Origin: Candidatus Omnitrophota bacterium
GTDB lineage: Bacteria > Omnitrophota > Gorgyraeia > Zapsychrales > Fredricksoniimonadaceae
Assembly (NCBI GenBank): GCA_028865345.1
Contig: JAGWKL010000001.1
Coordinates: forward strand, 63,296 to 127,295
Reading direction: 5' to 3'
Length of the DNA stretch: 64,000 nucleotides
The position numbers were made by a program, and so were the translations under genes. Shown here piece by piece: positions 45,594 to 62,721 of the stretch. Within the stretch, counting starts at the first letter, position 1. Each line of letters begins with the position of its first letter. The notes beneath the pieces are model-generated. The model was not told the origin of the DNA and did no database searches. It saw only the letters and a program-made list of their open reading frames with translations.

Positions 45594-45596
45594 ACA

Positions 45597-46787
45597 ATGC
45601 GCGTCTTATTCCACTACACCCACAAGCAAACCCTCGGGCACACCACCCGCAGCATCTCTTTTGTAACAGCGCTTTGCCGCCTTAAAGCCGATGTCCTCGT
45701 ATTGCAAGGGGGCCTTGTGCAGCCTTTTGTCCGTTTCCCCTCCGGCTGCCGGGTCATGGATATCCCTTTTCCTTTTGACGCACGCACCAGTTTTCAGGCC
45801 CACGCTGTCCCTGTATCCGCAAGCCGACGCGCTCAATTTATCCTCAAAGCGGCCGCTGAATTCTGCCCTGATGTTTTCATCACCGAATTTTTCCCTTTCG
45901 GCAGATCGTCCTATTTGCCGGAACTGCTGCCTCTGTTGCGCTACCTGCGTAAAAAAGGTACCCGTATCATGGCCAGCATCGGATATCCTTTGATCATCGA
46001 CCTGGATCGTTTCAGCGACCCGAAATTCGCCGCCCTGCAAAAAGCCGTATTTGCTTTCTACGACAACTTTCTCATCCATACGCCGCAAGAGCTTGAAACC
46101 CCGTATATCCAAAAAACCATCCCCTCCGAGCCCCTGGCCCGTTCCTATGCCGCACTGATGAAGGACCTGAAGGCCCGGATCGACTATACCGGCTATATCT
46201 TCCCGGAAAAAATCATCACCGGCGATTCCTTGCGGCCGAATTCCACCGCCCCTTCCATCGTCGTCAGCCGCGGGGGCGGCGCCGTGTATCCGAAACTCAT
46301 GACCACCGCCATCGAAGCCCAGCGTCTCCTCGGGGGCGTCCATACGGTGATCGCCTGCGGTCCGGCCACGACCGCGGCGGAAAAAGCCTTGTTCACCTCC
46401 TGCCTCGATCCCCAGGACAACGGCCGGGTGGTCCTTTCGGACCTTCTGGCGGACCTTGACGACCATCTGCGCACGGCAAGGGTTTCGGTGAGCCTGTGCG
46501 GCTACAATACCTGCGTCCAATTGATGCGTTACGGGACGCCCTCGGTGATCGTCCCCTATCACAACACACTTGCCTCCAACCCGACCAATGACCAGATGGC
46601 CCGCTCCCGGTTGCTTGCCGAACGCTTCTCTGGTATCATCCTTGATTACGATACGATGACGCCGCAAAGTTTGTCCGACGCTATCAAAGAACAAATGTCC
46701 AAACCCCGCCCTGCGCCCGCCCCCCGGGACTGGTTCAACGGGGCTGAAACGGCAGCGCGTCTTGTGCTTGAAGGTAGGGCAAATTAA
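45597..46787 (+). CDS. GT-B fold glycosyltransferase (GT1/GT28-like), paralog A
   Basis: Two-Rossmann pattern and the shared block FITEFFP. It is a paralog of 61504-62721. The antisense 362-aa track ORF inside it was rejected. Confidence 0.6.
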   Translation: MRVLFHYTHKQTLGHTTRSISFVTALCRLKADVLVLQGGLVQPFVRFPSGCRVMDIPFPFDARTSFQAHAVPVSASRRAQFILKAAAEFCPDVFITEFFPFGRSSYLPELLPLLRYLRKKGTRIMASIGYPLIIDLDRFSDPKFAALQKAVFAFYDNFLIHTPQELETPYIQKTIPSEPLARSYAALMKDLKARIDYTGYIFPEKIITGDSLRPNSTAPSIVVSRGGGAVYPKLMTTAIEAQRLLGGVHTVIACGPATTAAEKALFTSCLDPQDNGRVVLSDLLADLDDHLRTARVSVSLCGYNTCVQLMRYGTPSVIVPYHNTLASNPTNDQMARSRLLAERFSGIILDYDTMTPQSLSDAIKEQMSKPRPAPAPRDWFNGAETAARLVLEGRAN

Positions 46788-47751
46788 ATTTCTTCAAAAA
46801 CCCATGATAGGCAAAGCACCCGGGGCAATGGCCCTGGGCCGCATCTTCCGCATGCCGTTGACGGACCAGATCCAGTTCCTGCGGCAATTGTCCCTGATCT
46901 CCCAGTTTCCCGGCAGGCTCCATGTAGAGGCAAGGAAAAACATTCCGGCGCGAATTAATGAAAAGGGATTTGGCCGGGGTTTCGCAGGCGCGGATGCATT
47001 TGCGGCCGCCGGCCAAAAGCACCATCATGGCCTTGACCAGGCGGTTGTCAACCCCCGCGTAATTGTCCTTTAACATGGCCTCCACCTGTCCGCGGACATC
47101 TTCAACCATGGCAGGCGTCAGGGAGGCCAGTTGGCCTGCCTGCGGCATCTCGTGGCGGTGATAGTAATCATCGACGCCGGATTCCATGATCTTGGGTGAA
47201 AACCGCGCTTTAAAGCGCCGCGCCATACGGTAAACATCGCCTAACTCGGCGTAATTCAGGCGGTTGATGGTGAATTTAAATTCCAGGATGATGTCCTTGC
47301 CGAAATGGGCGGCCAGCCACTCGATGGTTTTTAAGGATTTCCCAAAAGCCCCCGGCCCCCGCAGGCGGTCATGCACCTCTTGTCTTCCGTCGATGCTGAT
47401 CCCCATGTGCATCCCGCTCAAATCCTTGCCGTAGGCGGTCATCACGCGGCGTACGCCTTCGAAATACGCCGCGTTGCTGTAAACGCCGAAGCCCGAAATC
47501 TGGCCGCGTTGGCGGAAGAACGACATCGCTTTCAATACGCGCCCGCAATTCCTGTTGAGAAAGGGTTCTCCTCCGGTGATGGACACAAAATAAACCTCAT
47601 AACGCGCAAGCAATTGGCGCATCATGCGCACGACCAATGACGAGGACATCTCATGGCGGTCTTTTTCCGCCCATATCCCGCAGTGCTGGCAATGGAGCTG
47701 GCAGTGATTGGTGATTTCGATGGTTATATCGTTAAGCAGAGGTTTTTTCAT
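46735..47751 (-). CDS. Radical SAM protein with SPASM-like C-terminus
   Basis: CQLHCQHC, plus a C-terminal ...FPCLY...GHCPGCFAYHG. Confidence 0.8.
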   Translation of the reverse strand: MKKPLLNDITIEITNHCQLHCQHCGIWAEKDRHEMSSSLVVRMMRQLLARYEVYFVSITGGEPFLNRNCGRVLKAMSFFRQRGQISGFGVYSNAAYFEGVRRVMTAYGKDLSGMHMGISIDGRQEVHDRLRGPGAFGKSLKTIEWLAAHFGKDIILEFKFTINRLNYAELGDVYRMARRFKARFSPKIMESGVDDYYHRHEMPQAGQLASLTPAMVEDVRGQVEAMLKDNYAGVDNRLVKAMMVLLAGGRKCIRACETPAKSLFINSRRNVFPCLYMEPAGKLGDQGQLPQELDLVRQRHAEDAAQGHCPGCFAYHGFLKKFNLPYLQAQDALPFQPR

Positions 47752-48850
47752 GTTCTACAAAAGACCTGCTGGTTTCAATGACCTGCCGGGCCTTGTCCTC
47801 GCTCATGAATGAATACAAAGGAAGATGCAGGGCCGAGGCCGCATACCACGCGCTGACCGGAAAGCCCTCCTGCTGATTTCCCTTAAATACCGCCATGCGA
47901 TGCAGCGGTATGTACGCCCGCTGGGCCATGATGCCCCGGCTTTCCAGGAAATTAAAAAACTCGTCCCTGCAATCGCAGCACACCACGAAATTCTGCGCCA
48001 CGCTTTGGGTTTGCGGGGCGTCTTTGAAGATCGTCAGTCCCTCGATTGTGCCGATCTGCCGCTCATATAAGGCCTTGATCTTATGGCGGGAGGCAATGAT
48101 CTCTTTCAGGCGGGAAAATTTGACCCTCAGGGCCACCAGGTCCATCAGGGACATAGGCGCAAACCGCTGCCCCAGCTTGACAAGCTCACCGGTGTCACGC
48201 CAGTCTTCCATCCAGCGCCGGATGCGGTTGAGTTTGGAGGCGTCAGCCGTGATCATGCCCCCTCCGCCGCCGCAGGACGAGAGGGGTTTGTAGTAAGAAA
48301 AGGAGAATACGGCCATATCACCGAAGGAACCCAGCATGCGGCCTTTGTACCTGGAGCTTTCCGCCTGGCACACGTCTTCGATAAAAACGATGTTCTTCTC
48401 CCGGCAAAATTTTCCGATCCGCTCTACGTCGCACGGCCGGCCGAACATATGGGCGGCAATGACCGCCCTGGTCTTCTTGGTCACGGCCGCTTCCACGAGA
48501 CCCGGGTCCAACTGAAGGTCTTCGGCGCGCGCATCCACGGCCACCGGTGTGGCCCCGCAATAACAAACGGCCAGCGCCACGGCCTGGTAGGTCAAATCAG
48601 GGACAATCACCTCGTCGCCGGGCCCCACCCCGCAGGCCAGCAGGGCCATTTTCAAGGCATCGCTCCCGGAGTTGACGGCCAGCGCATGCTTGACCCCGAT
48701 ATACCGCGCAAATTCATTTTCAAAATCTTGCACCATGGGCTTGATATCATTCAGCCCGCTCATGGCTTTAAGGGCACGGTCCATTTCAGCCGCATACTCG
48801 CGGCTCAAGGCCTGCTCCACCAAAAGACTTTCATATCTTACGGCTGCCAT
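47732..48850 (-). CDS. DegT/DnrJ/EryC1/StrS-family PLP-dependent sugar aminotransferase
   Basis: NSGSDAL block and an SFSYYKPL lysine (PLP) block typical of the DegT family. Confidence 0.85.
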   Translation of the reverse strand: MAAVRYESLLVEQALSREYAAEMDRALKAMSGLNDIKPMVQDFENEFARYIGVKHALAVNSGSDALKMALLACGVGPGDEVIVPDLTYQAVALAVCYCGATPVAVDARAEDLQLDPGLVEAAVTKKTRAVIAAHMFGRPCDVERIGKFCREKNIVFIEDVCQAESSRYKGRMLGSFGDMAVFSFSYYKPLSSCGGGGGMITADASKLNRIRRWMEDWRDTGELVKLGQRFAPMSLMDLVALRVKFSRLKEIIASRHKIKALYERQIGTIEGLTIFKDAPQTQSVAQNFVVCCDCRDEFFNFLESRGIMAQRAYIPLHRMAVFKGNQQEGFPVSAWYAASALHLPLYSFMSEDKARQVIETSRSFVEHEKTSA

Positions 48851-49857
48851 GCAGTTGCCCCCATGATCTTATGATCAATGGCCTCGATTTGTTCGCACAG
48901 ATCGATATAAGCCCGCACCCTCTCTTCATAGCGGCGGCCCGGCGGGGTCTTGACCGCCTGCAGGGCATTGAAATTGCTGATGCTGCGGTAACTGCAGTTG
49001 GGATGGCCGGCCAGATGCTCTTGCAGCGCCTTAAAATAAGGCCCGGCCTGCGCCAGGGGCTCTCCCGACGGCCCTTGGCTGAAATCCATCAGATAAAGGC
49101 ACTCGCGCACCTCCTCGGGAAAGGACAAAAGCAGCCAATTGGCCAGCACCTTGCCGCTGGGCACGGACAGCAGGTCCCAGGCCCCGCGGGAAGGCTCGCT
49201 GTATCCGCGGCCGATCAAACCATGCCTGCCCTCTTTCAACTCCCAGGCGCAGGCCCGGCGGTATTGGTCTAAAAAAACGCCGGCCGCTGCTTTGTCCCAG
49301 ACTTCCAGAAAAGCCGGGTGCACTTCAATGGATTTCAGGCCCATGGCCGCCAAATATTTTAAGTTATCAAACAATTTGGCCGCGCCTGAAGGGTGCACCA
49401 CCATGGTGGTGGTATACGGCCCCTGGGAACGCAGGACCAGATTGACGCCCCGCACGATGTCCGCGTAATAATAAGGGCCTATCCCCGGCCGGTTGCGCTG
49501 GGTGGTGGTTTCATCTCCGTCGATACCGACCTCCAGATTGACCCCGTGGGTCAGGAAAAATTCCATCAGCTCCTCATTGAGCAGGGTGGCATTGGTCTGG
49601 ACGGACATATACCGGTTCAGGCCCTGGCCGGAGATCTCCGCAATCATTTCTTTAAGCCGTGCGGCATCCATCAAAGGCTCTCCCCCGGAGAAAACAAATT
49701 CCATCGGGGCCATCGGACGGACGAACTTAAGGATATTCTCGAATGTTTTTAAAGCGATGACCTGGCTTTGGGTCCGGTATTTATAGAAGCAATACCCGCA
49801 CCCCAGATTGCAGCGGTCGGTGAAGAAGAGCCAAACATGGTTGATCTTTTTGATCAT
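48838..49857 (-). CDS. Radical SAM protein
   Basis: CNLGCGYCFYKY. Internal start MIKKINHVWLFFTDRC gives an ATGA overlap with the upstream gene. Confidence 0.8.
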   Translation of the reverse strand: MIKKINHVWLFFTDRCNLGCGYCFYKYRTQSQVIALKTFENILKFVRPMAPMEFVFSGGEPLMDAARLKEMIAEISGQGLNRYMSVQTNATLLNEELMEFFLTHGVNLEVGIDGDETTTQRNRPGIGPYYYADIVRGVNLVLRSQGPYTTTMVVHPSGAAKLFDNLKYLAAMGLKSIEVHPAFLEVWDKAAAGVFLDQYRRACAWELKEGRHGLIGRGYSEPSRGAWDLLSVPSGKVLANWLLLSFPEEVRECLYLMDFSQGPSGEPLAQAGPYFKALQEHLAGHPNCSYRSISNFNALQAVKTPPGRRYEERVRAYIDLCEQIEAIDHKIMGATAWQP

Positions 49858-50897
49858 GTTCCGTATTTTTTGACCCCCAGGGTCAGGTGGGTCCTTGTCA
49901 AGAACCGCAGGATATCGTTGATGGCCCATGTGTTCATATATTGAGTGCCCATCATGGAGTTCATCAGTTCAAAATTATGGCAGACAAATTCGCGGTAAGG
50001 CAGTTTGGCGTGCTCCCGGTGCACTTTCTCGTGTGCCGTCCGGTAAAAGGCCAGCACCTCAGGCCTGAAACGGCCGACGTCATCCCAGATATTGAATTCC
50101 ATCCGTTTGTTTTCCGGAAGGCAAAGAAAAGGGTCTCCCCCCAAAAGATATCCCGGCGGATGCAGGCTTAAGTCCATGTACCCGGGAGCGATCCATTCAT
50201 TGTCCTCATTGGCATACATGGTCCTGCGCAGTTCGGGCCTGCGCGCCAATTTCAGATAATTTGTTTTAAAAAGCGCCACGGTTTCCGGCGTCCAGGGCAT
50301 GAACGCCGCCGGAGTGACATCCACATGGGGGATGCCCATTTCCCTGAGAAAATCCAGGCCCTGTTCCATGTGATCGACTTCTTGAGGGTGCACCGTCATC
50401 GTCGAACCGCAGCCGATGCCGGCCTGAACACAGGCACGGATGGTTTCCGTCAATTTCTTGAAGGACGCCGGTTTTAAGCCGCAGCGGTGGCGCAGGGTGG
50501 CCTCGGAAGCCCCGTCGATGCCGAACTCCAGGGTGACGCCCAGCCGGCGCAGTTCAATGATCGAATCGCGGTCTATCAACAGTCCGTTGGTCTGGATATG
50601 CAGGGAGGTGTCCTTGAAGCGCCCGTGGGCCTCATTCAAGATCCTAAAAAGGTTCTCCTTGGCCAAAAACGCCTCCCCGCCGGAAAAAATCAATGTGGAC
50701 GGGGCGCCTGTTTCCTTTTCGAACAACAGAAAAAGTTTTTCCACGGCGTCCAATGATATTTCCCGGCCGTGCATGTGCCGAAAGAAGCAATAATCGCAAT
50801 GCAGGTTGCAGCGTTCGGTCACATAGATCCAGGTGTAATGGACCTTGAATTTACTGTGCTTTTGTTCTGGCGTCGATAAAGTACCTGATTTTTCCAT
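49854..50897 (-). CDS. Radical SAM protein
   Basis: CNLHCDYCFFRH. It is a tandem paralog of 48838-49857. Confidence 0.8.
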   Translation of the reverse strand: MEKSGTLSTPEQKHSKFKVHYTWIYVTERCNLHCDYCFFRHMHGREISLDAVEKLFLLFEKETGAPSTLIFSGGEAFLAKENLFRILNEAHGRFKDTSLHIQTNGLLIDRDSIIELRRLGVTLEFGIDGASEATLRHRCGLKPASFKKLTETIRACVQAGIGCGSTMTVHPQEVDHMEQGLDFLREMGIPHVDVTPAAFMPWTPETVALFKTNYLKLARRPELRRTMYANEDNEWIAPGYMDLSLHPPGYLLGGDPFLCLPENKRMEFNIWDDVGRFRPEVLAFYRTAHEKVHREHAKLPYREFVCHNFELMNSMMGTQYMNTWAINDILRFLTRTHLTLGVKKYGT

Positions 50898-52011
50898 TCA
50901 AGGTCCTCGGGAGGGTCCCTTCATGTTTTCTGAGTTCAACGCAATTGTCCAATCCCAGCGCTTTGACGACAACCTGGCACACGGACGGCTTGATGCGGTC
51001 GGCCGCCACGTTAATAATAAGTTTATCATAATATTGAAGCCGGTGCTTATCAATGAGAAAGAAGAAACACGGGGTTCCCAAACAATTGTTGACGGTACGG
51101 ATGAGGGCTTCTTTGTCCACCACCACACCGTTGACAAGCAAGCTCTCCTGCGTCCTTCCCAACACCTTGATCGCCAACGCGCCGCGCCGGTCCAAAAGCT
51201 CGACACGGTCGCCCAAACGGTAGCGGACAAAGGGCATGCTGGTGTTGTTGAGGTCCGTCACCAACAAATCGCCGGTTCCCGTTGGTGACGCCTCACCGGG
51301 CTGCGCCAGTACCTCCAGCAAAAGCCCTTGGGCAAAGACCCTCATAGAGTCATCGCCGGCCTTGAGGGCGAGGGCCAACCCTGAAATTTCCATGGCCCCG
51401 TAGTGGTCGTGGATGCTTACTCCCCCCATCTTTTCCATCCGCCGCCGGTAGTCCGGCCATAAAGGCTCGCCGTTGACCAGGCAGCGCCGGATAGAATGCC
51501 GGCGGCCCAATACCGAAAACAGGTCAAACAACTGGTTGGTATACGCGTTGACAACCGCGGGTTTCAAAAGCCTGACGAGACGGGCCGCTTCGTGAACTTT
51601 CTCCGGGCTGCTGATAGGGCCAAGCGGAATGACGCCCGCGCCAGCCGCCTTAAAAGCCGTCTCCATCATGCGCCCGCCGCTGTTTAGTTCATAAGAACAT
51701 AAATTCAGGCACAGCACCCCCGGCTTGATGCCGGCATGGCGGTACATCATGACCAAACGGCCCAAATGGGCCTCATACGCCTGCCGGGAATGGGCTATGA
51801 TCATCCTCGAGGAAGTGGACCCTGAGGTGGCCGTGATATTAAAGGCATGCCGCAAACCCCCGGAGGCGTACGCCTTGATATCTTCCCTGCTTGTGACGGG
51901 AAGCTGTTGAAAATCCCGCCACGAACGCAAAACACGGCGGCGTCCCGGGGAGGGAAAACTTTTGAGCAACTGCGAAACTTGTTTTAACGCCTGCGCATTA
52001 AACATCATCAA
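50851..52011 (-). CDS. Adenylate-forming enzyme, phenylacetate-CoA ligase / coenzyme F390 synthetase (CapK)-like
   Basis: ATSGSTSSRMII matches the ANL superfamily motif A1 (T/S-S/G-G-S/T-T-G). The ~386-aa size fits the PaaK family. Confidence 0.6.
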   Translation of the reverse strand: MMMFNAQALKQVSQLLKSFPSPGRRRVLRSWRDFQQLPVTSREDIKAYASGGLRHAFNITATSGSTSSRMIIAHSRQAYEAHLGRLVMMYRHAGIKPGVLCLNLCSYELNSGGRMMETAFKAAGAGVIPLGPISSPEKVHEAARLVRLLKPAVVNAYTNQLFDLFSVLGRRHSIRRCLVNGEPLWPDYRRRMEKMGGVSIHDHYGAMEISGLALALKAGDDSMRVFAQGLLLEVLAQPGEASPTGTGDLLVTDLNNTSMPFVRYRLGDRVELLDRRGALAIKVLGRTQESLLVNGVVVDKEALIRTVNNCLGTPCFFFLIDKHRLQYYDKLIINVAADRIKPSVCQVVVKALGLDNCVELRKHEGTLPRTLNGKIRYFIDARTKAQ

Positions 52012-52052
52012 GCCCCTGCCCTCCCGGCCCGGCGCAACCGGTTTTCATATGA

Positions 52053-53129
52053 TCATGACAAGCCTTGAGAATTCCTGTCCTTGCCATGCGCCGTCAGCGG
52101 AGCCTCCGTGGCTTTGCACAATAAACAAGGGCGCCAATAGTTCTTGGAAATATCCATGACAGGGCTGAAATCTTCTTTCCCGGAAATGATCTCATCAAAG
52201 CTTTGTGATAATAAATTACCGAAAAAAAACGGGTCCTGATCAATGGGCAGGCCGTTGACGGCGCGGAAGGGATTATAACAGCCGTAACAATCCCCGTTGC
52301 CGTCGATAAACAACACGTATTTATGCACCCCGCAGGTGTAACAACAACCGGCATCTGTGCCGCGGCCCTCTGAAAAAGGCCTCAACCTCTCCAGAAGCTT
52401 CTCGGTCTTCTTTATAAAATCCTGCAGGTTCGTACAATCCCATAAGTCTTTACGGCGGCTGTTGAGTTTTGCCAGCAGTAAGACCTTGTGCAGCCCTTCA
52501 TAATCGAATCCAAGGTGCTTGGGGGTCTTGATATAATTGTGCACATGCTGATAAGAAACATATAATTTCCTGCCCCCTAATTCGGCAGCGAGCAAACGAT
52601 TGACCTCCTGGGGGAATGTAAATGCGTCTTTCAATGATTGTGCCGTAACGACATAATTGGTCCGCAGGGTTATGCCCAGGCCGTTTTCCAGAATGCCGCG
52701 AAGGACGTTTTTGACCGATCCGATGCAGCGGTCAAAAGAAAATCCCGGCGAGGGTTGGTGGATCCTGGCCAGGCCCTCCTGGTCCACGGCGTTCAAATTG
52801 ATTGTCAACGTCCGTATAAAGGGCAGGACCTCGAGAATGGCCTTGTCATTAAGGGCATTGGACAACAGCTCGATCTTATAACCAAGCTCATGGGCCATGG
52901 CCACCACCTTGGTGAATGCCGGGTTCAAAGTCGGTTCACCCCTGCCGCCTATTTCCAGCACCCGGAATCCATGCGCGTAAGCCGACAAGAGGACATCGTT
53001 CCAGCGCTGCAAGCTCATGGAATCTTTATCGCTTAAGGGATGCTCTTCTTTGACATAGCCATACATGCAAAATGTGCAGTGATATTGGCAGCCATCGTAA
53101 AGCGAGACGAGCAATCTTTTATCTTCCAT
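52053..53129 (-). CDS. Radical SAM protein with SPASM-like C-terminus
   Basis: CQYHCTFCMYGY, plus a C-terminal AGCCYTCGVHKY...GDCYGCYNPF. Confidence 0.8.
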   Translation of the reverse strand: MEDKRLLVSLYDGCQYHCTFCMYGYVKEEHPLSDKDSMSLQRWNDVLLSAYAHGFRVLEIGGRGEPTLNPAFTKVVAMAHELGYKIELLSNALNDKAILEVLPFIRTLTINLNAVDQEGLARIHQPSPGFSFDRCIGSVKNVLRGILENGLGITLRTNYVVTAQSLKDAFTFPQEVNRLLAAELGGRKLYVSYQHVHNYIKTPKHLGFDYEGLHKVLLLAKLNSRRKDLWDCTNLQDFIKKTEKLLERLRPFSEGRGTDAGCCYTCGVHKYVLFIDGNGDCYGCYNPFRAVNGLPIDQDPFFFGNLLSQSFDEIISGKEDFSPVMDISKNYWRPCLLCKATEAPLTAHGKDRNSQGLS

Positions 53130-54312
53130 ACGCCGCCTCCTGCCTTTTGTCACCGTAAAAAACAAGCCCCTCGTCCTCAAAGAAAGATTGCCGGGTGAAC
53201 CATCCCTTGCGCAATCCTTCGCGATAAAGCGCCGTACCGGGCAATATCACAAGCCGGTTGGTGGATACTTTGACGTCCGGGCCCAATTCCTTAAGCGCCG
53301 ACAATGTTAAATTCCGGTCCTGCTCAGTTTCTCCGGGGTTATCGACCGTAATCATGACCTCCACCTTCAGGCCGGCTTCTTGGGACCAACGCACGGCATT
53401 CAATATGTCCTGCCGGCTGTACCTTTTCCCGAGGCGATGCAAGACCGCGGGAGAAGCAGATTCTACTCCAAAGTAAATCTCCCGGCAAGCGGAACGTCCC
53501 ATTAAGAAAAGCATTTTCTTGTTCACTGAGCTCACACAAGCCGAACAGGCCCAGAAAAACTGTCCTTTGATCCGGCGCATCCCCGCGCATATGGCCGTAA
53601 GACGTTTCTGATCCGCCGCAAAATCTTCATCCAACAATTCGATCTCCCCGGCCTGATTATTCTCCACGAGATCCCTGACCTCATCCAACACATTGGCCAC
53701 GCTGCGATACCGCAATCCCCCTCCCCAATGGACGTTACGGTCGCAAAATACGCAATGATGCTGGCACCCGCGGGCGGTCATGAGAAATGCACGGGGATGC
53801 CCCTGGTTATAAAAATAAGGGCCGATAAAAGGGATCTCATCCAAATTAGGGAAAGAATGTTTTACGGTATGGATGATCGTTCCCTCGTGCCTATAAGATA
53901 TGTTGGGGACCGTTTTTAACGGTGAACGCCCTTCTAATACGGCGGGAATTACGAATTCCGGATCATCCTTGACCACGATGTCCGCCAGCCCGCTTAAAAG
54001 GATCTCGTCGGAGAACACGGAAGCAAAGGGGCCGAAAGCAATGATAAGACGGGGAGGTTTCGGCAATCGGCGGGCATTTTCCATATGGAGAAAAGCGTTC
54101 GCCTTATTCCCAAAGAATATCGCGTAGCAGCAGACCTCGGCTGGGCCCTCCCGGCGGGGAGAATCTTTCCCATTCTTTGCCGCCAAGTTCACGCATCGGG
54201 CATCCCATCCCTTTTGGAGAAGCGCCAGGAATACGCCTCCAAAGCTATACCGGTCTAAAGGGGGGCAACCGCAGGCCGGCCGCGCATAATCCGCGAAGAT
54301 GACTTCGATCAA
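53119..54312 (-). CDS. Class B-like radical SAM protein (N-terminal B12-binding-type domain + radical SAM)
   Basis: A ~190-aa Rossmann-like N-terminal domain followed by ARGCQHHCVFCD. Confidence 0.7.
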   Translation of the reverse strand: MIEVIFADYARPACGCPPLDRYSFGGVFLALLQKGWDARCVNLAAKNGKDSPRREGPAEVCCYAIFFGNKANAFLHMENARRLPKPPRLIIAFGPFASVFSDEILLSGLADIVVKDDPEFVIPAVLEGRSPLKTVPNISYRHEGTIIHTVKHSFPNLDEIPFIGPYFYNQGHPRAFLMTARGCQHHCVFCDRNVHWGGGLRYRSVANVLDEVRDLVENNQAGEIELLDEDFAADQKRLTAICAGMRRIKGQFFWACSACVSSVNKKMLFLMGRSACREIYFGVESASPAVLHRLGKRYSRQDILNAVRWSQEAGLKVEVMITVDNPGETEQDRNLTLSALKELGPDVKVSTNRLVILPGTALYREGLRKGWFTRQSFFEDEGLVFYGDKRQEAAYGR

Positions 54313-54440
54313 AGGATCTCCTTTTCTTCTTTAGCACCTTTTGGGGCAAATCCAAGGCCGGCGCATCTAGGCCTATTGCCGCCCTAATAAAGCATACTAT
54401 AAGCTGCGTTCCTTTGCCGTACTTTGTCTCGCCGCAAACG

Positions 54441-55322
54441 TCACGCCCCTGCCTTCCTGGCCTTGCGCAAGATCAGATCCAATGCCGGAGTTTTAAGGCC
54501 CTGACGCCTGGCCTGGCGCACAAGCGCCCCTGTTATGTAATCAAGTTCCGTCGGCCGGCCTGCCCGCCTATCCTCGAACAAGGTCCCGCGGTGAGCGATC
54601 CCCTTCAAATCACCCTGGCGCACCCTCTTTATTATTTTCAAAGGATCAAAAGCCAGGCGGACCCTTAAAGCACGGGCTACGGCCTTGCCTTCTTCGACAG
54701 CCTGACGCACCGATTTCCAGACGCAAGCATCTGTCCTTAAAACATCATATCCCCTGCCTTCGATCACAGGCAACGGGTTCATCACCGCGCTGAAGATCAA
54801 CTTGGCCCAGGTGATCCTTGAAGATCGGGACACCAAAGAAGCCTTTAAACCGGCATCGGACAAGAGGCGGCAAAACCAGCCGGCCGCTTGTTTGTGCCGG
54901 TCGCATGCCAAAAAGAACCTTCCCTGATAATGAAAAACCGGCTTGCCTTTCACATTACCGACGGCGGAAGTGGTCACTCCCCGCACCAAAGCCGCTTCGG
55001 GCAGTCCATGGGCGATCCGGGGAAGGTCCAGAAGCCCATTTTGCAAGAAGAGCACCCGCCGGGCAGCCCCTATGATTTTCAACCCGGCCAGCGCCCGCGC
55101 GGCGTCATAGCATTTCGTTGCCACGATAACCCCGTCGAACGATCTTCCCCTGAGGCCGGCAGGGTCATGAAAAACCGGCACCTTGACCCTGGCCCGGGGA
55201 CAAGGGTCGAGGACCGTCACCGACGCGCAAGGCCCGAGGCGAAGGGCAAGGGCCCCTCCCAATGCCCCGCATCCGACGATCAACAACTGCCGTCTTTGCC
55301 CTGTGCGTCTAAACGATTGCAA
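54441..55322 (-). CDS. 2-dehydropantoate 2-reductase (PanE/ApbA)-family NAD(P)-dependent oxidoreductase
   Basis: N-terminal LLIVGCGALGGALALRLG dinucleotide-binding motif and a PanE-like length of 293 aa. Confidence 0.65.
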   Translation of the reverse strand: MQSFRRTGQRRQLLIVGCGALGGALALRLGPCASVTVLDPCPRARVKVPVFHDPAGLRGRSFDGVIVATKCYDAARALAGLKIIGAARRVLFLQNGLLDLPRIAHGLPEAALVRGVTTSAVGNVKGKPVFHYQGRFFLACDRHKQAAGWFCRLLSDAGLKASLVSRSSRITWAKLIFSAVMNPLPVIEGRGYDVLRTDACVWKSVRQAVEEGKAVARALRVRLAFDPLKIIKRVRQGDLKGIAHRGTLFEDRRAGRPTELDYITGALVRQARRQGLKTPALDLILRKARKAGA

Positions 55323-55334
55323 AAGCAGACTCCT

Positions 55335-56720
55335 TCAAACTCCTGCCATGGACAGGACACTGCTGTTCAATTGTTCCAATGTCCGGCTTTTCAATATCAA
55401 TTTGGTCAAATCCCCTCCCTGATAGCGCAGCAGCCGGTCATAATCTCTGATGACTTTCTGCTGCGGCCTGGATTTGAGAAAAGTCACCAACTGCTGCATC
55501 AGGGCAAGGCTGTCCTCCGCTTCCGTCATGTACCAAAAATCAAAGAAAGGTTCGCGCAAACACACCTGCAGGATATCGCGCATCAACGCCGGGCTTATCT
55601 CCATCTGGGAGGGAAGGAAATTCATAATGAACATAAAGGGGACAATATAATTAGCTGCCGCAGGGGATCTATGGCGCCTGTTGAACAGTATCTGCCAGCC
55701 GATATTCGGTTCAACACCCTCTATGGCCCCCACCCGAAGCACCACTTCGAGGTTACGGCGCAGGGCCGAAGGGGTTTCCCCCCGTATCCCCATCATAAAA
55801 GAAAGATGGATTTCCGTTTCTTTCCGGCGGTACTTCAGGAATTCCGCCAGTCTTTTGGGGGAGTTTTCCCCCTTGCGGATCCGCCTTAACAGGGACAAAT
55901 CCACATGCTCCACGCCGAAGAAAATCGTCCGGCATCCTGCCGCGGTCATCCGGCCATAAATATCGGGGTCGATATCGTCCAACCTGGTCTTGCAGCGCCA
56001 GGTCACGCCGGGGTTTTCCCGTTGCAGCCGCGCCAGGAAATCTTCGGTAAAGGGCCTGTCCGAAATAAAATTGGGTTCGCAGAATTCAAAATAAGTTTTT
56101 CCGCTCTTTTCGGCAAAACGCATCCACCGCAGGACCCTGTCCGGTGAATGTCTGGTTATCGCCGGGGAACCTTCAAAAGGCAGGCGGTTGTAACAAAAAG
56201 AACAGTTGGCCCAGCAGCCGAAGGTCAGGTATTCCCAAAAACGGTAATGCTCGTACCCGTATCGCTTGAGCGACGCCCCAAGACCTTCAAAGAAAGCGTC
56301 CTCGGTCAGCCGGGGATTCCCGATATGCCGGAGAATATATTCGTCGATATTCAACGGGCTGAAAACAATGTTGTCCCTTTGGATCAACGAGGTTTCATAC
56401 AAAGAAAAATAAGGAGAACAAATAATGATCTTTTTATCCTTTAACAAAGGCAGATAAAGGTAGAGAAAGATGAGGGACTCGATCTTGGGATAATTATTAT
56501 GGCAAGCCATGGAAACAAGGACGGTGTCTTCCTTGATGCCGGACAGCACATGCATCAACGATGAACGAAAATCAGGGTCCGGGGAACGTTCGATATCATA
56601 AAATCCGTAAGGGTGGCCCAATGCATCAAGGAGGCTCAGGGCCTTCATCAGCCCAACCGGCAAGAGTTCATGATGTTTGGGAATGATCTGAAGGATCGCA
56701 AGCGAACGGCCTTTCTTCAT
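55335..56720 (-). CDS. Radical SAM protein with large N-terminal domain (class B/B12-binding-like candidate)
   Basis: A ~200-aa N-terminal domain followed by GCWANCSFCYNRL (CX3CX2C). Confidence 0.65.
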   Translation of the reverse strand: MKKGRSLAILQIIPKHHELLPVGLMKALSLLDALGHPYGFYDIERSPDPDFRSSLMHVLSGIKEDTVLVSMACHNNYPKIESLIFLYLYLPLLKDKKIIICSPYFSLYETSLIQRDNIVFSPLNIDEYILRHIGNPRLTEDAFFEGLGASLKRYGYEHYRFWEYLTFGCWANCSFCYNRLPFEGSPAITRHSPDRVLRWMRFAEKSGKTYFEFCEPNFISDRPFTEDFLARLQRENPGVTWRCKTRLDDIDPDIYGRMTAAGCRTIFFGVEHVDLSLLRRIRKGENSPKRLAEFLKYRRKETEIHLSFMMGIRGETPSALRRNLEVVLRVGAIEGVEPNIGWQILFNRRHRSPAAANYIVPFMFIMNFLPSQMEISPALMRDILQVCLREPFFDFWYMTEAEDSLALMQQLVTFLKSRPQQKVIRDYDRLLRYQGGDLTKLILKSRTLEQLNSSVLSMAGV

Positions 56721-57595
56721 CGCGCCCTCCTGGTTTTTTCAAGTACAAGGTAACCGCTGTCAGACTCTCCTAAATCAACTTTTAAACCCAACGGGCGCGC
56801 CTGCTGAGCAAGCACGCGGCCGGGAGAAACCCCGCCGCCCATAAAATCATTCCCCGGGTCAAGATAACCGATGATCCGCCCCCCCGGACGTAACAGACCC
56901 GCCATTCCTGCCAGCTTTGCCCGATAGTACTCCAGAGGTTCCTGCCAAAAAATATCCGACAAATAAATCACATCCAATGATCTTTTTCTAAAATAATCCG
57001 GGCTGTCAAATATGTCCATTTGAGCAAACCTCAAAGATCCAAGCCGCGCGCGCACTCTGGCTACAAACGACGGGTCTTTTTTCCAAAACGGTCCGGATTC
57101 CGGGTTTAGAACCATTTCACCCGCAGTAATGAACGAATACTTTTCAGCCAGTCCGGCGGGGGGAAGGATCCTTTCCCCTGTGGCCTTATTGTACAAATAC
57201 ATCTGCTGCAAGTGCCGGAAATTCCTTTTGATCGCTGTGATTTGACCGTGATGCGCCCGGTGCAATTGCTCAAAAGAAGGCATCATATTGTTTTGTTTTA
57301 TAAAAAAGGCCTTGGCAGCGAGCACAAAAAGTTGGGCACAATTAAGATCCACCGCCCACAAAGTCCCTTTCCTGCACCCGGCGCCGAGCATCGTCAATGC
57401 CTGATCGCCGCCGCCGCAGCAGGCCAAAATGTTCGGGCAATCTCCGGCGGCGGTGATCAGCGCCGCAAGCCTGGGGAGAGGTTCGGTAGAATCGAAATAC
57501 CGGACAAAACCCCCGTAACGCTTTAACGTGCTGTTGATCCCCTGAGGCTTGATCACAGCGTTCCTTTTCATCATCAAAGACGGCCCCTCCTTCAA
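56717..57595 (-). CDS. DUF3419/BtaA-like SAM-binding protein (possible 3-amino-3-carboxypropyl or methyl transferase)
   Basis: ILACCGGGDQALTMLGAG...VDLNCAQLFVLAAK resembles the DUF3419 signature (I.SaGdN.L...aVDlNpaQ). Confidence 0.45.
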   Translation of the reverse strand: MKEGPSLMMKRNAVIKPQGINSTLKRYGGFVRYFDSTEPLPRLAALITAAGDCPNILACCGGGDQALTMLGAGCRKGTLWAVDLNCAQLFVLAAKAFFIKQNNMMPSFEQLHRAHHGQITAIKRNFRHLQQMYLYNKATGERILPPAGLAEKYSFITAGEMVLNPESGPFWKKDPSFVARVRARLGSLRFAQMDIFDSPDYFRKRSLDVIYLSDIFWQEPLEYYRAKLAGMAGLLRPGGRIIGYLDPGNDFMGGGVSPGRVLAQQARPLGLKVDLGESDSGYLVLEKTRRAR

Positions 57596-57620
57596 AAAAA
57601 GATCCCCGGGAAACCCTCCC

Positions 57621-59333
57621 TCATTTTTTCTTCAGGCAAAAATATTGTCCGAAAACATCTGTATTCTGAAACATTTTTAAAAACACGACAATGTTGCGTT
57701 TGGCCTGCGTGGAGAGGCCGGAAGTCCTTTGGGCAAGCCTCGTGAGTTCCTGGCCGGATAAAATTTTTCCGCTCAATTGTTCAAAGAAGCGGATCGACAG
57801 CGGGTCCTTGACCGTAAGCGTAAGGCCCTTGCGGCTGGAGCCTAATTTAAGTTCCCCGGCAACGCAGACGCATTGGTCCGGATGAAAATAATACAGGCGG
57901 TCTTCTCCGGAAGGCACCTGTCCCTTCAATTCGATGAACCGTACGATTTTCCAGAAATAGGCCCTGTCCTTGTTGGTTCTTAATTTCAGCTCGGCCAAGC
58001 GGTATAAATCTGAAAAAGAAAGCTTTTTGTCCACAACATGTTGTTCAAAGACCTGCCGCACCTTGGCGTCGGCGATGCGGACCAAGCGCCCTAAGGAACC
58101 TTTGCTCACATAATAAATTTTGTTGGCCTTCTTGAGACGGTCGGCGGCGCTTATGCCGCGGGGCAAAAAAGTATCCTCGCTTTCCTGTTGAAGATGCTTG
58201 GCCCTTTCCGTGATGGGGGAAGGCTTGAAATGCCTGGAAAACCCGCCCCGTAAAATCGTCCGGTTGATCCTTTCATTGACACCTTTATTAAACACGCTTC
58301 CGGAATACCAGGTGCCTATCCCCTCGACCAGCGTGTTGATCAGCGCATTGCAGTTTCTGTCATACCATTGGTGGTCGAATTGACCTTTGTTTTTATTAAG
58401 ATTATCGGCAACGGTGAGCGCTTCCAGCATGGCCACCCCTGAACCGGCCGAATAGACGGGATCGGCAAAACAACAGGCGTCTCCAATGAGGATCCAATTG
58501 GCACCAGTGCATTGCCGGCTGCGCCTGGAATAATTAGGGCGGCAATGGACCTCTTTCATATAAGGCGCAATGGCCCTGCCGGGGTTTCGGGCAATGGACG
58601 TCAGCCGCCAACAGGCGGCAGCATGCTTTCCGGTGTATTCAAAAAGCTCTTTCTCGGACAGAGGTTCGCCCCGATGCAGAAGACCCATGCTTAAAATTGA
58701 ACTGCGGTAAATAGGGATTTGCCATATCCAACTGTCCGCGGCGATCTTATTGATCACCGTCCAATTGGCCCAAGAGTCAGCCTCCCGGTTTAAACTGTCT
58801 ATGGCCCAATAACTCCATTGCGCCTTCATGCCTGCAAACTGGTCGACAGGCGTCACCAGGTTGAGCTTATTGGCGAGGACCATGGCCGGACCGGAACAGT
58901 CCAAAATATATTTTGTAAACCGGTATGTGTTGTGGTCCGTCTTAACGGTGTTCTTTGCCAAATCAATATCAAGAATGGTTTCCTGGCGGATATCGACGGA
59001 GAGTTCCTTGGCAAGCAGTTCTTCAATTTCCCGGCGCTCACAATGAAAGGCAAACGACCTGCCCAATGCCGTAGGAAAATGGCTCGCATACCGGCCATGG
59101 TAGGAATCACAGAAAATCGTCCCCAGCTTTCTGGTGAAGCTTTTCATCTTCACGATTTTAGGGATCAGGCTGATCAAGCCGGGGTCTTCATTGATGAGAG
59201 TAGGAACATGCGATTCCCCTATTTTGTATTGGAAAGGTTTTTTGTCGATGAGGATGGTCTTGCCCAGCAGCTTGTATTTCAAGCCGATCCCGGCAAACCC
59301 GGCGCCTATGATCAGATAATCGCATGTCACCAT
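57621..59333 (-). CDS. Flavin-dependent halogenase (tryptophan-halogenase family) with ~180-aa C-terminal extension
   Basis: GAGFAG FAD motif, K-IGES lysine block, WIWQIP (WxWxIP) and FADPVYSAGSG. Start chosen at MVTCDYLIIGAG. Confidence 0.7.
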   Translation of the reverse strand: MVTCDYLIIGAGFAGIGLKYKLLGKTILIDKKPFQYKIGESHVPTLINEDPGLISLIPKIVKMKSFTRKLGTIFCDSYHGRYASHFPTALGRSFAFHCERREIEELLAKELSVDIRQETILDIDLAKNTVKTDHNTYRFTKYILDCSGPAMVLANKLNLVTPVDQFAGMKAQWSYWAIDSLNREADSWANWTVINKIAADSWIWQIPIYRSSILSMGLLHRGEPLSEKELFEYTGKHAAACWRLTSIARNPGRAIAPYMKEVHCRPNYSRRSRQCTGANWILIGDACCFADPVYSAGSGVAMLEALTVADNLNKNKGQFDHQWYDRNCNALINTLVEGIGTWYSGSVFNKGVNERINRTILRGGFSRHFKPSPITERAKHLQQESEDTFLPRGISAADRLKKANKIYYVSKGSLGRLVRIADAKVRQVFEQHVVDKKLSFSDLYRLAELKLRTNKDRAYFWKIVRFIELKGQVPSGEDRLYYFHPDQCVCVAGELKLGSSRKGLTLTVKDPLSIRFFEQLSGKILSGQELTRLAQRTSGLSTQAKRNIVVFLKMFQNTDVFGQYFCLKKK

Positions 59334-59387
59334 ACATTTGCCTCCTGTAACTGTGGACGGTTTAAGGCCTGAAGCTGCCCGGAACAT

Positions 59388-59583
59388 CGACGACCAAAGA
59401 TCTCAGCACGGGCCGGCAAAAAATGGATCACCCCGAGATACGCTTATGAATGGCGTTGAGTTCCTTGTATTTTATTGGGCCTTGACGGAGATATCAAGAA
59501 AAACCCGCCATTTCCCACGGACTGCCGGCAGCCGCACTTTTGAAAGAACCTTATTCACAAATATGCCCTTTTAAATTAGACTA
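59388..59583. promoter_or_regulatory. Divergent intergenic region between halogenase operon (minus) and prepilin peptidase gene (plus)
   Basis: 196-nt spacer between divergent starts. It is the likely promoter region for the long minus-strand operon 59333 to 52053. Confidence 0.35.
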
Positions 59584-60483
59584 ATGGCCATGACCGCTTT
59601 GGGGGTGATCATCCTGTGTGTCGGTGTATTAACCACGTTTACCGATCTTAAGAACAAAAAAATATATAATCTCCACTTGGGCCTTGGCGCCCTCATGGGC
59701 CTGCTGGCCGTGGCCTACACAGCTCTCAAAGGCCAGGAACACGTGCTTTTTCATCTTGTCGACGGCGCGGTTGCTTTTGGCGTCGGGTTTCTCCTGCACC
59801 GCTCTTCACTTTGGAAAGGCGGCGACGCCAAACTCTTTGCGCTCTATGCGTTTCTGATGCCGCCGCCGGAATTCAAACTGATCATCTTTCCGCAAGTGAC
59901 GGATCTGTTCGCCTGTTCCTTCATTGCAGGCACCATCCTGCTCATACCTCTTCTTATTAAAAATATTATCATAAATCGCGGGACAATTGCAACCCAGGCC
60001 TTTTCCCCGGCCAAAAGGCGCGGCCTCGGGTCGGCCATGGGGACCTTGATTTTCTATTCCTGGGCGCTGTTTCCCATCTATTACCTGGCCCGGCTTACGA
60101 ACCCCGTGGTCATTCTGTTTATCCTTTATTGCTTCTTCAATTGGGGCTATTCCACCAGGGAAATCAAGAAAGATGAAGTGGCGGCGCACAGAAAAAGATT
60201 TTATCTTGAGCTGTTGATCGTATTTTTGGTCGGGTTTCTCAGCCGCCTTTGGCTGGCGCCGGATTCCCTTGATGGGCCCTCCCTTTTACGCTATGGTCTT
60301 ATGATCGTATTTTCCTGCACCGTGTCTGTCTGCATCCACACCGTCCTGGAGCATGTCAAAGAATACCGTGACCGGGTGCCGTTTGCGCCGTTGCTATTTC
60401 TGGGATGCCTGCTGAGTTATACGCCTTTTTTGACATATCTGACGCGCCTGTTGGTCCGGTGGAACATCTTTTTCTACCGCTGA
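59584..60483 (+). CDS. A24-family type IV prepilin peptidase (TadV/CpaA/FlaK-like, no N-methyltransferase domain evident)
   Basis: Polytopic membrane protein with a GGDAKLFA second catalytic Asp motif and an Asp in the first cytoplasmic loop (FTDLKN). Confidence 0.75.
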   Translation: MAMTALGVIILCVGVLTTFTDLKNKKIYNLHLGLGALMGLLAVAYTALKGQEHVLFHLVDGAVAFGVGFLLHRSSLWKGGDAKLFALYAFLMPPPEFKLIIFPQVTDLFACSFIAGTILLIPLLIKNIIINRGTIATQAFSPAKRRGLGSAMGTLIFYSWALFPIYYLARLTNPVVILFILYCFFNWGYSTREIKKDEVAAHRKRFYLELLIVFLVGFLSRLWLAPDSLDGPSLLRYGLMIVFSCTVSVCIHTVLEHVKEYRDRVPFAPLLFLGCLLSYTPFLTYLTRLLVRWNIFFYR

Positions 60484-60524
60484 AGAAAGTTAGCAAAAAC
60501 GGCAAACCGTGTTATTATTAAAAT

Positions 60525-61556
60525 ATGGACCGATTTTCATCCCTTCCCCTGCAGCGGCCTTCGGTGCCGTTGGAGATCATCGTCGAGATCACCGGCCGGT
60601 GCCGGCAGGTCTGCCCTTACTGCACCGGCCCGCGGATACCGGATGTGCCTTTCAAAGATATCAAAGCCGCCCTTGATGAGGCCGCGGGGCTTGGCGTCAG
60701 GGCCATCCGCATTACCGGCGGGGAACCTACCCTGCATCCTGATATCCGCCAAATCCTGACGTACACCAAGGCCAAAAAATTTGACATCATCCTGAACACA
60801 TCCGCCGACAATATCAGCGCGGCCCTGATGAAAACCATCATCGCTACCGTCGACGTTGCGCATGTCTCATTACAAGGCTACGATGAGAAAAACAATGCTT
60901 CCTACACCCGTTCCAAGGTCCCTTTCCTGGATAAAATCAAGAATATCTTTCTTTTAAAAGCTTATCTGCCGACCCTGTGGATCGCCACCGTCATAACGCC
61001 GGCCAAACCGTTAAAGCCCTTTATTCCCATTATTAAAAAGATCCACCCCGCCGCCTGGCTCCTGCAGCGCCCCATCAGTGAGTCCAATGAAGATTTGAAA
61101 AAAATGGACATTCCGTATTACCGTGCCCTTGCGCTTGAGATCATGAAACTCCGCAAAGAAAGGATCAACGCCTTTATTTCCAATCCGATTCCCCTGTGCG
61201 TCGCGGGGAACCTGGATATAGGTCAACAGGTGTTCCTGGGCGCCAAATTAGACGAGGGCCATTTACGCATCGTGCGCAGCGCCAAAGGGTATTTCAAGCC
61301 AAACTACTTTTTAGAGACCAATTTAGGCCGCACCCTTCAGGCTGCGTGGCAGCATCCTTTTTTAAACGACCTCAACCGCACCGACTATCTGCCGGACGAC
61401 TGCCAACGCTGCCCTCTGCTTGAAACCTGCCGGGGAGGCAGCCGTTCCATGGCCCTGCGCACCCACGGCACACCCCTGGCCGCGGATCCTCTCTTCGATG
61501 CCTCTACGGCCCGAAGAGCCCTGTCAAAGTACGATCCAAAACCTCAGCGCCTGTAA
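60525..61556 (+). CDS. Radical SAM protein with SPASM-like C-terminus
   Basis: GRCRQVCPYCTG and a C-terminal DDCQRCPLLETCRGG. Confidence 0.8.
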   Translation: MDRFSSLPLQRPSVPLEIIVEITGRCRQVCPYCTGPRIPDVPFKDIKAALDEAAGLGVRAIRITGGEPTLHPDIRQILTYTKAKKFDIILNTSADNISAALMKTIIATVDVAHVSLQGYDEKNNASYTRSKVPFLDKIKNIFLLKAYLPTLWIATVITPAKPLKPFIPIIKKIHPAAWLLQRPISESNEDLKKMDIPYYRALALEIMKLRKERINAFISNPIPLCVAGNLDIGQQVFLGAKLDEGHLRIVRSAKGYFKPNYFLETNLGRTLQAAWQHPFLNDLNRTDYLPDDCQRCPLLETCRGGSRSMALRTHGTPLAADPLFDASTARRALSKYDPKPQRL

Positions 61557-62721
61557 ACCACTCCTGCGGGACTGAAACATTGTTTTGAGACCGGCGTGCC
61601 GTTTCCCGGATCGCCGCAGCCAGCCCGTCCGCCGTTAAATGATCAATGGATAAAATCCTGGCGCCGATCGTCTCTTGAAGCATGAGCGCCCTTGCGGGCT
61701 GTTCACGGATCGACTGCCGTCCATACCCCTCAAAAGGAACAAGCACCGACTTCTTTTTGTATTTAAGCAGCATGACCGAGGTATGGTATGACGCCAGGGA
61801 AACGCAAACATCGCTGCTTTTGACCAGCCCTTCATAATCGCCCGCGGAGCGCAACAGCACCAGGTTTTTGATTTTCTTCTGACCCATCAGCGTGTTGAAG
61901 AAATACCATTCTTCAGAGGAAGTGGACGGCCCTGCCACCACGGTCACATAGTATTCTTTTCCCAGAAGATCACTGGCGCGGATGGCTTGGGCGATCACCT
62001 TAGGGTAGACCGCCCCGCCTCCCCGGAGTACGGCTACCCGGCAGGCCCCGGGAGCAGCAGGCGGTTTGGGACGATTCGTATCTTCGTCGTCCAGCGCCAC
62101 CTGGCTCTGGGGCAAAAGATATCCCGCAAATTTGGTTTTGGCAGCATGCCTGTCAAAGAATTCCAGATACCTTTGTTTCTCCTGCGGCCGCGAGAACAAG
62201 CCGGCCACGAACTCTTTTTCCTGCGGCGGCGAGAATATAAGGACCTGCTGATACAAGCGCAATATTTTCTGACGCCAGCCGTCATCCGTACCCGTCAATA
62301 AAGGGTAACCTGCCACGGCCCACAAGGGTGTGCCCTGGGCGGACATTTTAATCAGGGATGGGATCAGTTCATGGCGGCATTCGTGGCTTCCTATGGGGAA
62401 AAATTCCGTTATAAAAAAATCCGGGTTCTCACGGGCGACCAAATCCATGCAAGCCCGGGTCCGTTGTTCGGTCTGCTCCTGCATAGGGAAAGCCGGTTCT
62501 TTCAAGAAAGGCCTTTCCGTCGGAGCTTGAGGCAGCGGATAGACCTTGCCTATCCGGTTTATCATGGCCCTGGTCTGGACGGCCCCCGTCTGGATAAAGA
62601 AAACGTCCCCGTCAGGGGACCTTTTTTTGACGGCCTGCGCAACCGCGATGGCGCGGGAGGTGTGGCCGAAACATTCATAATGGGTAAAATAGAGACCCGT
62701 CTTGCGGGGGGAGGCTTTCAT
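61504..62721 (-). CDS. GT-B fold glycosyltransferase (GT1/GT28-like), paralog B
   Basis: It shares FTHYECFGHTSRAIA / FITEFFP / RGGGAVYPK blocks with 45597-46787. Confidence 0.6.
   Translation of the reverse strand: MKASPRKTGLYFTHYECFGHTSRAIAVAQAVKKRSPDGDVFFIQTGAVQTRAMINRIGKVYPLPQAPTERPFLKEPAFPMQEQTEQRTRACMDLVARENPDFFITEFFPIGSHECRHELIPSLIKMSAQGTPLWAVAGYPLLTGTDDGWRQKILRLYQQVLIFSPPQEKEFVAGLFSRPQEKQRYLEFFDRHAAKTKFAGYLLPQSQVALDDEDTNRPKPPAAPGACRVAVLRGGGAVYPKVIAQAIRASDLLGKEYYVTVVAGPSTSSEEWYFFNTLMGQKKIKNLVLLRSAGDYEGLVKSSDVCVSLASYHTSVMLLKYKKKSVLVPFEGYGRQSIREQPARALMLQETIGARILSIDHLTADGLAAAIRETARRSQNNVSVPQEWFTGAEVLDRTLTGLFGP

Follow-up and report, generated by a model that had tools for sequence, protein, structure and literature searches.

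Convergent glycosyltransferase/radical SAM gene overlaps of equal length in an Omnitrophota cluster and their probable origin in stop-codon loss

Convergent gene overlaps, in which the 3′ ends of genes on opposite strands run into each other, fit a stop-codon-mutation model, and phase (123:132) is the commonest among those of at least 5 nucleotides (nt), accounting for 49% (Lillo & Krakauer 2007, PMC2174442). Two overlaps of this kind lie in a 64,000-nt stretch of the Candidatus Omnitrophota assembly GCA_028865345.1 (contig JAGWKL010000001.1, positions 63,296–127,295; hereafter the window), each joining a gene for a glycosyltransferase (GT) to a gene for a radical S-adenosylmethionine (SAM) protein (rSAM). 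GT paralog A (GT-A; 45597–46787, plus strand, 396 amino acids (aa), stop TAA), a GT-B-fold glycosyltransferase, meets rSAM-A (46735–47751, minus strand, 338 aa, stop TGA); rSAM-B (60525–61556, plus strand, 343 aa, stop TAA) meets GT paralog B (GT-B; 61504–62721, minus strand, 405 aa, stop TAG). Both overlaps, at 46735–46787 in pair A and at 61504–61556 in pair B, are 53 nt long and in phase (123:132). They share with the overlaps described by Lillo and Krakauer the opposite-strand 3′ ends, the phase, a length set by a stop codon and the lack of a terminator between the genes, but differ in being well above the modal 4 nt, in persisting across a broad spread of Omnitrophota lineages (GT identity down to ~41%) and in having the same length in two paralogs, a consequence of an antisense stop that lies within a conserved protein motif. 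In our judgement they are very probably convergent overlaps created by stop-codon loss in the commonest phase, with the 53 nt resulting from homologous GT tails and an antisense stop in the motif W-F-x-G. The four open reading frames (ORFs) and two 53-nt overlaps had first been described from the DNA alone (the original prediction); with the stop codons read directly, that observation is confirmed, its interpretation is supported in part, and the phenomenon is a known and well-explained one. The locus also resembles noncontiguous operons and excludons (Toledo-Arana & Lasa 2020, PMC7154746; Iturbe et al. 2024, PMC11034616), in which an inverted gene interrupts a co-directional array of related genes: GT-A, a lone plus-strand gene wedged among minus-strand genes, likewise has a 3′-end overlap and no terminator.

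The length of 53 nt can be read from the position of the antisense stop. In GT-A, W379-F380-N381-G382 is encoded by TGG TTC AAC GGG (46731–46742, plus strand), within which TCA at 46735–46737 supplies rSAM-A, on the opposite strand, with its TGA stop. The equivalent W388-F389-T390-G391 of GT-B is encoded by TGG TTT ACA GGC (61549–61560, minus strand), in which the TTA spanning positions 2–3 of the Phe codon and position 1 of the Thr codon is the TAA stop of rSAM-B (61554–61556). A Phe codon of the W-F-x-G motif followed by a codon that starts with A (TTY-A) creates a TAA or TGA stop on the opposite strand. Relatives were examined in 28 loci from species-representative genomes and 48 loci from a metagenome scan, all of them Omnitrophota-type metagenome-assembled genomes (MAGs). 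With the window included, 15/15 distinct 53-nt junctions of pair A and 11 of the 16 distinct junctions of pair B have their rSAM stop at the Phe codon of the motif, and in every distinct junction of this kind (26/26) the stop falls 4 nt past base 1 of the Trp codon. Counted from the same Trp, the GT tail is 18 residues long in 36 of 46 junctions, in both paralog families, so that homologous 18-residue tails and an antisense stop at the Phe codon give (18 + 1) × 3 − 4 = 53 nt in both pairs.

Relatives in which the motif or the tail differs have other overlap lengths. Variants of the motif without TTY-A (WFL, WFF, WL) let the rSAM read on, to overlaps of 59–80 nt, and a GT tail longer by 3 residues gives a 62-nt overlap. 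In the 26-nt class of pair A, an antisense stop comes earlier, at CTT ATC (TTA), where the window has CTT GTG; the relatives’ stop at 46762–46764 accordingly reads TTG in the window. In both GTs of the window, 53 nt corresponds to the first antisense stop available in this phase, and a run of 17 stop-free codons has P 0.43–0.53. The rSAM gene thus ends at whichever in-frame stop it meets next within its partner, and this fixes the overlap length, as in the stop-codon-mutation model; relatives of pair A with the proximal stop have shorter overlaps, and the extra tails of the longer ones are non-homologous.

The junctions themselves are retained in evolution, as a synteny comparison with relatives revealed. 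The gene order DUF2334 (minus), GT-A (plus), rSAM-A (minus), DegT (minus) is conserved in most loci, and the GT-B/rSAM-B pair, together with an A24-peptidase-like gene, is conserved among relatives as well. All 47 distinct adjacent GT/rSAM junctions overlap, over a range of 4–92 nt and with a gap in none, compared with 13/35 of the other convergent junctions of the same loci; the existence of GT/rSAM overlaps therefore exceeds chance, though it is largely inherited rather than independent. Pair A shows overlaps of 53 nt (15 of 31 distinct junctions), 26 nt (5), 23 nt (3) and 4 nt (3), with 11, 19, 32, 43 and 56 nt found in one junction each, and pair B shows overlaps of 53 nt (10 of 16) and single cases of 44, 59, 62, 65, 80 and 92 nt. 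The original prediction had taken a conserved overlap length as a sign of selection, but lengths span 4–92 nt and switch back and forth repeatedly across the tree, with the 53-nt state scattered among the others. Two independent draws from the relatives’ length distributions match with P ~0.28, and the equality of the two 53-nt overlaps is hence not beyond chance. Identity of frame (2 mod 3 in 42/47 junctions) was considered as a signal of selection and rejected, because members of each family inherit the frame from one another's common ancestor and no other phase is as common genome-wide. The pairs offer a worked example of how a striking 53/53 coincidence comes down to the homology of a single partner combined with an antisense stop in a conserved motif.

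Judged by patterns of residue conservation and synonymous variation, only the distal ~26 nt of the overlap is dual-coding under constraint from the conserved rSAM C-terminus. In pair A this core spans 46762–46787, where the ...FNLPYL end of rSAM-A is antisense to the last GT-A codons, and it constitutes the entire overlap in the 26-nt class of relatives. The conserved C-terminus of rSAM-A (...CPGCFAYHGFLKKFNLxYL) enters GT-A by ~17–26 nt; the remainder of the overlap (46735–46761) holds 8 non-conserved rSAM-A codons and the stop, and throughout the 53-nt class the 8–9 rSAM-A residues past ...YL are not conserved, with tails that differ among relatives. Pair B subdivides similarly into 61504–61529 (~26 nt), facing the conserved end of rSAM-B (...DPLFD..A.KALSK), and a read-on part at 61530–61556 (YDPKPQRL plus stop). 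At L028, the sole locus where rSAM-B does not adjoin GT-B, the protein ends at ...KALSK. Synonymous variation in the last 6 codons of GT-A is 0.04, compared with a mean of 0.50 and a minimum of 0.14 in 380 upstream windows, and amino acids vary freely there despite this near-zero value. The read-on stretch of GT-A has ordinary synonymous variation (0.46, 29th percentile of upstream windows), whereas the last 8 codons of GT-B again have low variation (0.22, 1st percentile). The remaining 27 nt of pair A thus look like unconstrained read-on, and the corresponding part of pair B is borderline. The dual-coding signature is measurable, in that the conserved rSAM C-terminus dictates the codons of the GT tail.

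These observations suggest the following course of events. An ancient duplication left two GT-B-fold genes inside a conserved Omnitrophota rSAM/sugar-modifying cluster, each ending tail to tail against a different, unrelated rSAM gene. In each pair, ~26 nt forms a real dual-coding overlap of long standing, with the conserved rSAM C-terminus antisense to a loosely constrained GT end. Loss of the proximal rSAM stop would then let translation continue to the next antisense stop, supplied by the TTY of the GT W-F-x-G motif and a codon beginning with A, and so create a 53-nt overlap. The gene identities, the GT paralogy, the lack of paralogy between the rSAMs, the position of the stop, the distribution of lengths and the pattern of synonymous constraint are all demonstrated; we infer both the direction of this event (the proximal stop lost first, read-on second) and that the extra rSAM tail residues are functionally neutral.

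We caution that several observations fit this account less well. The read-on stretch of GT-B has borderline synonymous variation (0.31, 7th percentile), and ...PYLKHPRP is common to many rSAM-B tails; there may be mild constraint on the rSAM-B tail, or on the RNA. In GT-A, the codons of residues A383–T385 (W+4 to W+6; 46743–46751), within the read-on stretch, have synonymous variation of 0.03–0.13 in the 53-nt class, and this low variation is only partly mirrored or relaxed in the short-overlap class. The rSAM tail was considered as its cause, and the preference for GCT is kept in relatives whose rSAM stops short of these codons. The conserved ends of two unrelated rSAMs both enter GT tails by ~26–29 nt, a minor coincidence for which the stop-codon model offers no explanation. 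Finally, none of the 47 junctions has ever resolved into a gap, which fits a constrained dual-coding core and would also fit a selected regulatory role, and the junction samples are small and phylogenetically non-independent.

An alternative interpretation is that a frameshift or assembly error moved the stop codon of one gene in each pair. The source, with a 100% match to KGJ95_02830, is a Candidatus Omnitrophica MAG, which would favour such an error, but we give this reading next to no credence because 15 distinct 53-nt junctions of pair A (the window and 14 others) and 10 of pair B (the window and 9 others) come from several sequencing projects, and because each overlapping protein matches its orthologs through to the C-terminus. 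Since the stop positions and the 53-nt configuration recur in independent assemblies, a frameshift or assembly artefact is excluded and the overlaps stand; a 53-nt overlap is also present in public gene calls (GCA_028870875.1, contig JAGWOQ010000004.1). The original prediction was likewise right that repeat collapse during assembly is not involved, the junctions being without any DNA-level repeat. Both partners of the overlaps are genuine protein-coding genes, with Pfam matches, conserved orthologs and a confident fold model. For annotation, this means that such long GT/rSAM overlaps are genuine and are to be kept at full length.

The mirror orientation of the pairs raises the possibility of an old inverted duplication of the whole GT + rSAM module, with the 53-nt junction kept by selection on its length, as the original prediction proposed. 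GT-A and GT-B are indeed paralogs, both pairs have the same overlap length and phase, rSAM-A and rSAM-B are both ~340 aa long, and the mirror orientation is kept: on 10/10 other contigs with both GTs, these face inward at a distance of 14–23 kb, in line with the predicted bracketing of a core by the two pairs, and the mirror geometry is therefore ancestral. The rSAM partners, however, argue against duplication of the module. Both have PF04055 matches over the cutoff (48.7 bits for rSAM-A, 55.8 bits for rSAM-B) and the CxxxCxxC motif (C17-x3-C21-x2-C24 and C26-x3-C30-x2-C33, respectively). In their cores only, rSAM-A resembles SkfB and rSAM-B resembles PqqE, and a search for an NCBIfam subfamily of either protein gave generic sub-cutoff matches only (best 57–68 bits vs cutoffs of 380–400). 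Orthologs of rSAM-A are 37–78% identical and converge on GT-A in relatives; those of rSAM-B are 55–78% identical. By BLASTP, 66 aa around the cluster-binding motif can be aligned between rSAM-A and rSAM-B (E 0.001). Profiles built from the ortholog alignments were compared with hhalign, with genuine tandem rSAM paralogs of the cluster as the benchmark: rSAM-A and rSAM-B score 79.6 across 129 N-terminal columns, no better than they score against other rSAMs of the cluster, as opposed to 294 and 343 for the genuine paralog pairs (100 and 108 bits by BLASTP), which are adjacent genes at 42720–44839 and 48838–50897. Their C-terminal halves align with a probability of 0.6% over 13 columns, compared with 92–98% for true paralogs. 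rSAM-A and rSAM-B thus share no more than a generic core of ~130 residues and are unrelated in their C-terminal halves.

The DNA of the junctions and the behaviour of their length in relatives point the same way. A nucleotide alignment of overlaps A and B found no similarity beyond that required by the GT coding sequence, and a repeat search of 44–64 kb found no repeat at the junctions, the sole inverted match being the GT coding motif ‘PDxFITEFFP.G’. With an overlap length that ranges over 4–92 nt and toggles on the tree, rSAM partners far below the scores of real paralogs and overlap DNAs that cannot be aligned past the GT coding similarity, we regard the module duplication as very unlikely. 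The part of the original prediction that concerned GT paralogy stands; the part that extended the duplication to the module does not, because the rSAM partners are related by the generic core only, the very condition that the original prediction had named as refuting it, which indicates a duplication of the GT and not of the module. As ~12 of the 27 genes of the cluster encode rSAMs, an rSAM neighbour beside each GT is unsurprising.

The GT paralogy on which stop-codon loss into homologous tails depends was borne out by pairwise alignment. GT-A and GT-B align over their full length (29% identity, E 4e-50), agreeing with the earlier description of the two as moderately similar, and both end 8 residues past the same aligned Arg. 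PF04101 (Glyco_tran_28_C) matches the C-terminal domain of these GTs, over the cutoff in GT-A (35.6 bits) and under the cutoff of 22 in GT-B (17.8 bits). Searches of the GT family against the PDB by sequence gave no informative match, and no NCBIfam model matched it; the fold is therefore established by prediction. An AlphaFold2 model of GT-A (pLDDT 87, pTM 0.88) has its best Foldseek matches in CalG1, CalG4, OleD, GtfA and MurG (E 1e-13 to 2e-15; probability 1.00 for CalG1, OleD and MurG), and this predicted structure confirms a GT-B fold. Like these GT1/GT28 enzymes, the GT-A model has two Rossmann domains and a C-terminal helix (TM ~0.6), but GT-A is only 12–17% identical to any solved structure. 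Its final helix (residues 382–392 in the model) is the stretch encoded by the overlap. More than 100 GT-A orthologs (42–74% identity) were found in Omnitrophota, GT-B orthologs are 41–64% identical, and the family has so far been found only in Omnitrophota-type MAGs.

Two side observations concern GT-A. A distant clade (41–45% identity; loci L017, L019, L022 and L056) has two tandem GT-A-like genes, sometimes with an APH-like gene between them, the second of which converges on an rSAM-A ortholog with an overlap of 23–32 nt; the GT has thus been duplicated more than once in the family. In the window, a 362-aa ORF (45606–46694, minus strand) runs opposite GT-A in the codon-aligned phase (123:321) and has no Pfam match. 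GT-A in that phase meets just 1 antisense stop in 397 codons, and the ORF looks like a shadow ORF arising from codon usage rather than a gene.

A further reading places a bidirectional intrinsic terminator, common to both genes, within the overlapping coding sequence. Rho-independent terminators are located inside coding sequence for 20% of convergent overlapping E. coli genes (PMC2174442), but at 46.7 kb and 61.5 kb no hairpin with a T-tract is present on either strand. Terminator and promoter scans around both junctions, on both strands, found none at the junctions, with counts equal to the shuffled expectation. Folding of the RNA of the three convergent overlaps of the window (a third is described below), on both strands, gave energies no different from those of shuffles (z −0.73 to +1.48, none significant), and an Rfam scan of 35–64 kb gave no match. 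We therefore consider an embedded terminator highly improbable, and the suggestion in the original prediction of a shared bidirectional terminator or an antisense structure finds no backing in these scans.

The same lack of an intrinsic terminator between or within the convergent ends means that the two transcripts must share at least the overlapping coding stretch, which would favour antisense coupling, in which convergent GT and rSAM transcripts pair at their 3′ ends, or polymerases collide, and so couple or mutually limit expression in the manner of an excludon or noncontiguous operon. Overlap in all 47 distinct adjacent junctions would be in keeping with such coupling, as would the position of GT-A, which alone is inverted within a long run of minus-strand genes; this layout is conserved in relatives and of a type known to regulate reciprocally (PMC7154746; PMC11034616). 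We nevertheless hold coupling to be unlikely: the universal overlap is already explained by the conserved rSAM C-terminus lying inside the GT tail, overlap length is not conserved, the RNA has no unusual structure, and a −10-like palindrome in the DUF2334/GT-A spacer suggests that the minus-strand genes downstream restart there. That promoter-like palindrome sets the locus apart from noncontiguous operons and hints at separate transcription units; the authors who described such operons moreover hold that they are not computationally predictable (PMC11034616). A broader proposition holds that the overlaps and the squeezed, inverted GT-A, between its 33-nt spacer and its 53-nt overlap, make up a regulatory architecture that has been conserved. 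Convergent transcription, started at the palindrome acting as a bidirectional promoter and in the core rSAM operon, would collide or pair across the overlap and so tie GT expression reciprocally to that of the rSAM tailoring enzymes. We think this unlikely; if true, a biosynthetic cluster would here be under the control of an excludon or noncontiguous-operon device found across the phylum. We retain stop-codon loss into homologous GT tails as the preferred explanation of the two overlaps.

The divergent DUF2334/GT-A spacer (45564–45596, 33 nt) gives a concrete handle on transcription of the cluster. DUF2334 has its true start at 45563 (MSARLFIRNDD), and the spacer measures 27–36 nt in most relatives. 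At 45574–45581 it contains AGTATACT, a perfect palindrome that is present in a single copy in the 64-kb window; in 761 kb of related loci, 23/23 occurrences fall within the same spacer and keep a constant distance to the start of GT-A. Of 33 close GT-A loci, 23 keep the palindrome, and its variants retain TATACT or TATAAT. Since each strand thereby carries TATACT, at a constant distance from the start codon on either side, the palindrome looks like a candidate symmetric bidirectional −10 element serving near-leaderless divergent transcripts; a short operator is a candidate alternative role. Were it a promoter, the genes downstream of GT-A would restart there and not be read through GT-A. Symmetric bidirectional promoters (Warman et al., bioRxiv 10.1101/2020.01.31.928960) likewise have overlapping −10-like hexamers on both strands of a short divergent spacer, but the hexamer offset here differs from the commonest E. 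coli configuration of 18 bp.

A third convergent overlap, also noted in the original prediction and found as described, joins an APH-like, kinase-fold gene (36856–37920, plus strand) to rSAM-C (37850–39217, minus strand) over 71 nt (37850–37920) in the same phase (2 mod 3). It is built from non-conserved tails, and the two genes are adjacent in one relative only (L067), where they overlap by 21 nt.

All three overlaps belong to a ~28-kb cluster (35705–63576), the biologically more interesting object, whose gene content and, largely, order are conserved across many Omnitrophota MAGs; a literature search of Omnitrophota papers found no description of it. The ~12 rSAM genes among its 27 are of SPASM/twitch type and of B12 type (HpnJ/AprD4-like). 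It also encodes a DegT aminotransferase, a GT2, a PMT_2 (ArnT-like) protein, YdjC and DUF2334 (deacetylase-like), together with AsnS-like, AMP-binding, ApbA reductase, methyltransferase-like, flavin adenine dinucleotide (FAD)-enzyme and APH-like proteins. This set of domains would suit an Arn-like pathway for a lipid-linked aminosugar with heavy radical tailoring. A type IV pilus operon, pilM-pilN(?)-pilO-secretin (pilMNOQ; 31600–35604), directly abuts the cluster, and PilM adjoins it at locus L011 too. A prepilin-peptidase-like (A24) gene (59584–60483) lies in an operon with rSAM-B, with which it is co-directional, and a link between the cluster and modification of the pilus or pilin is possible.

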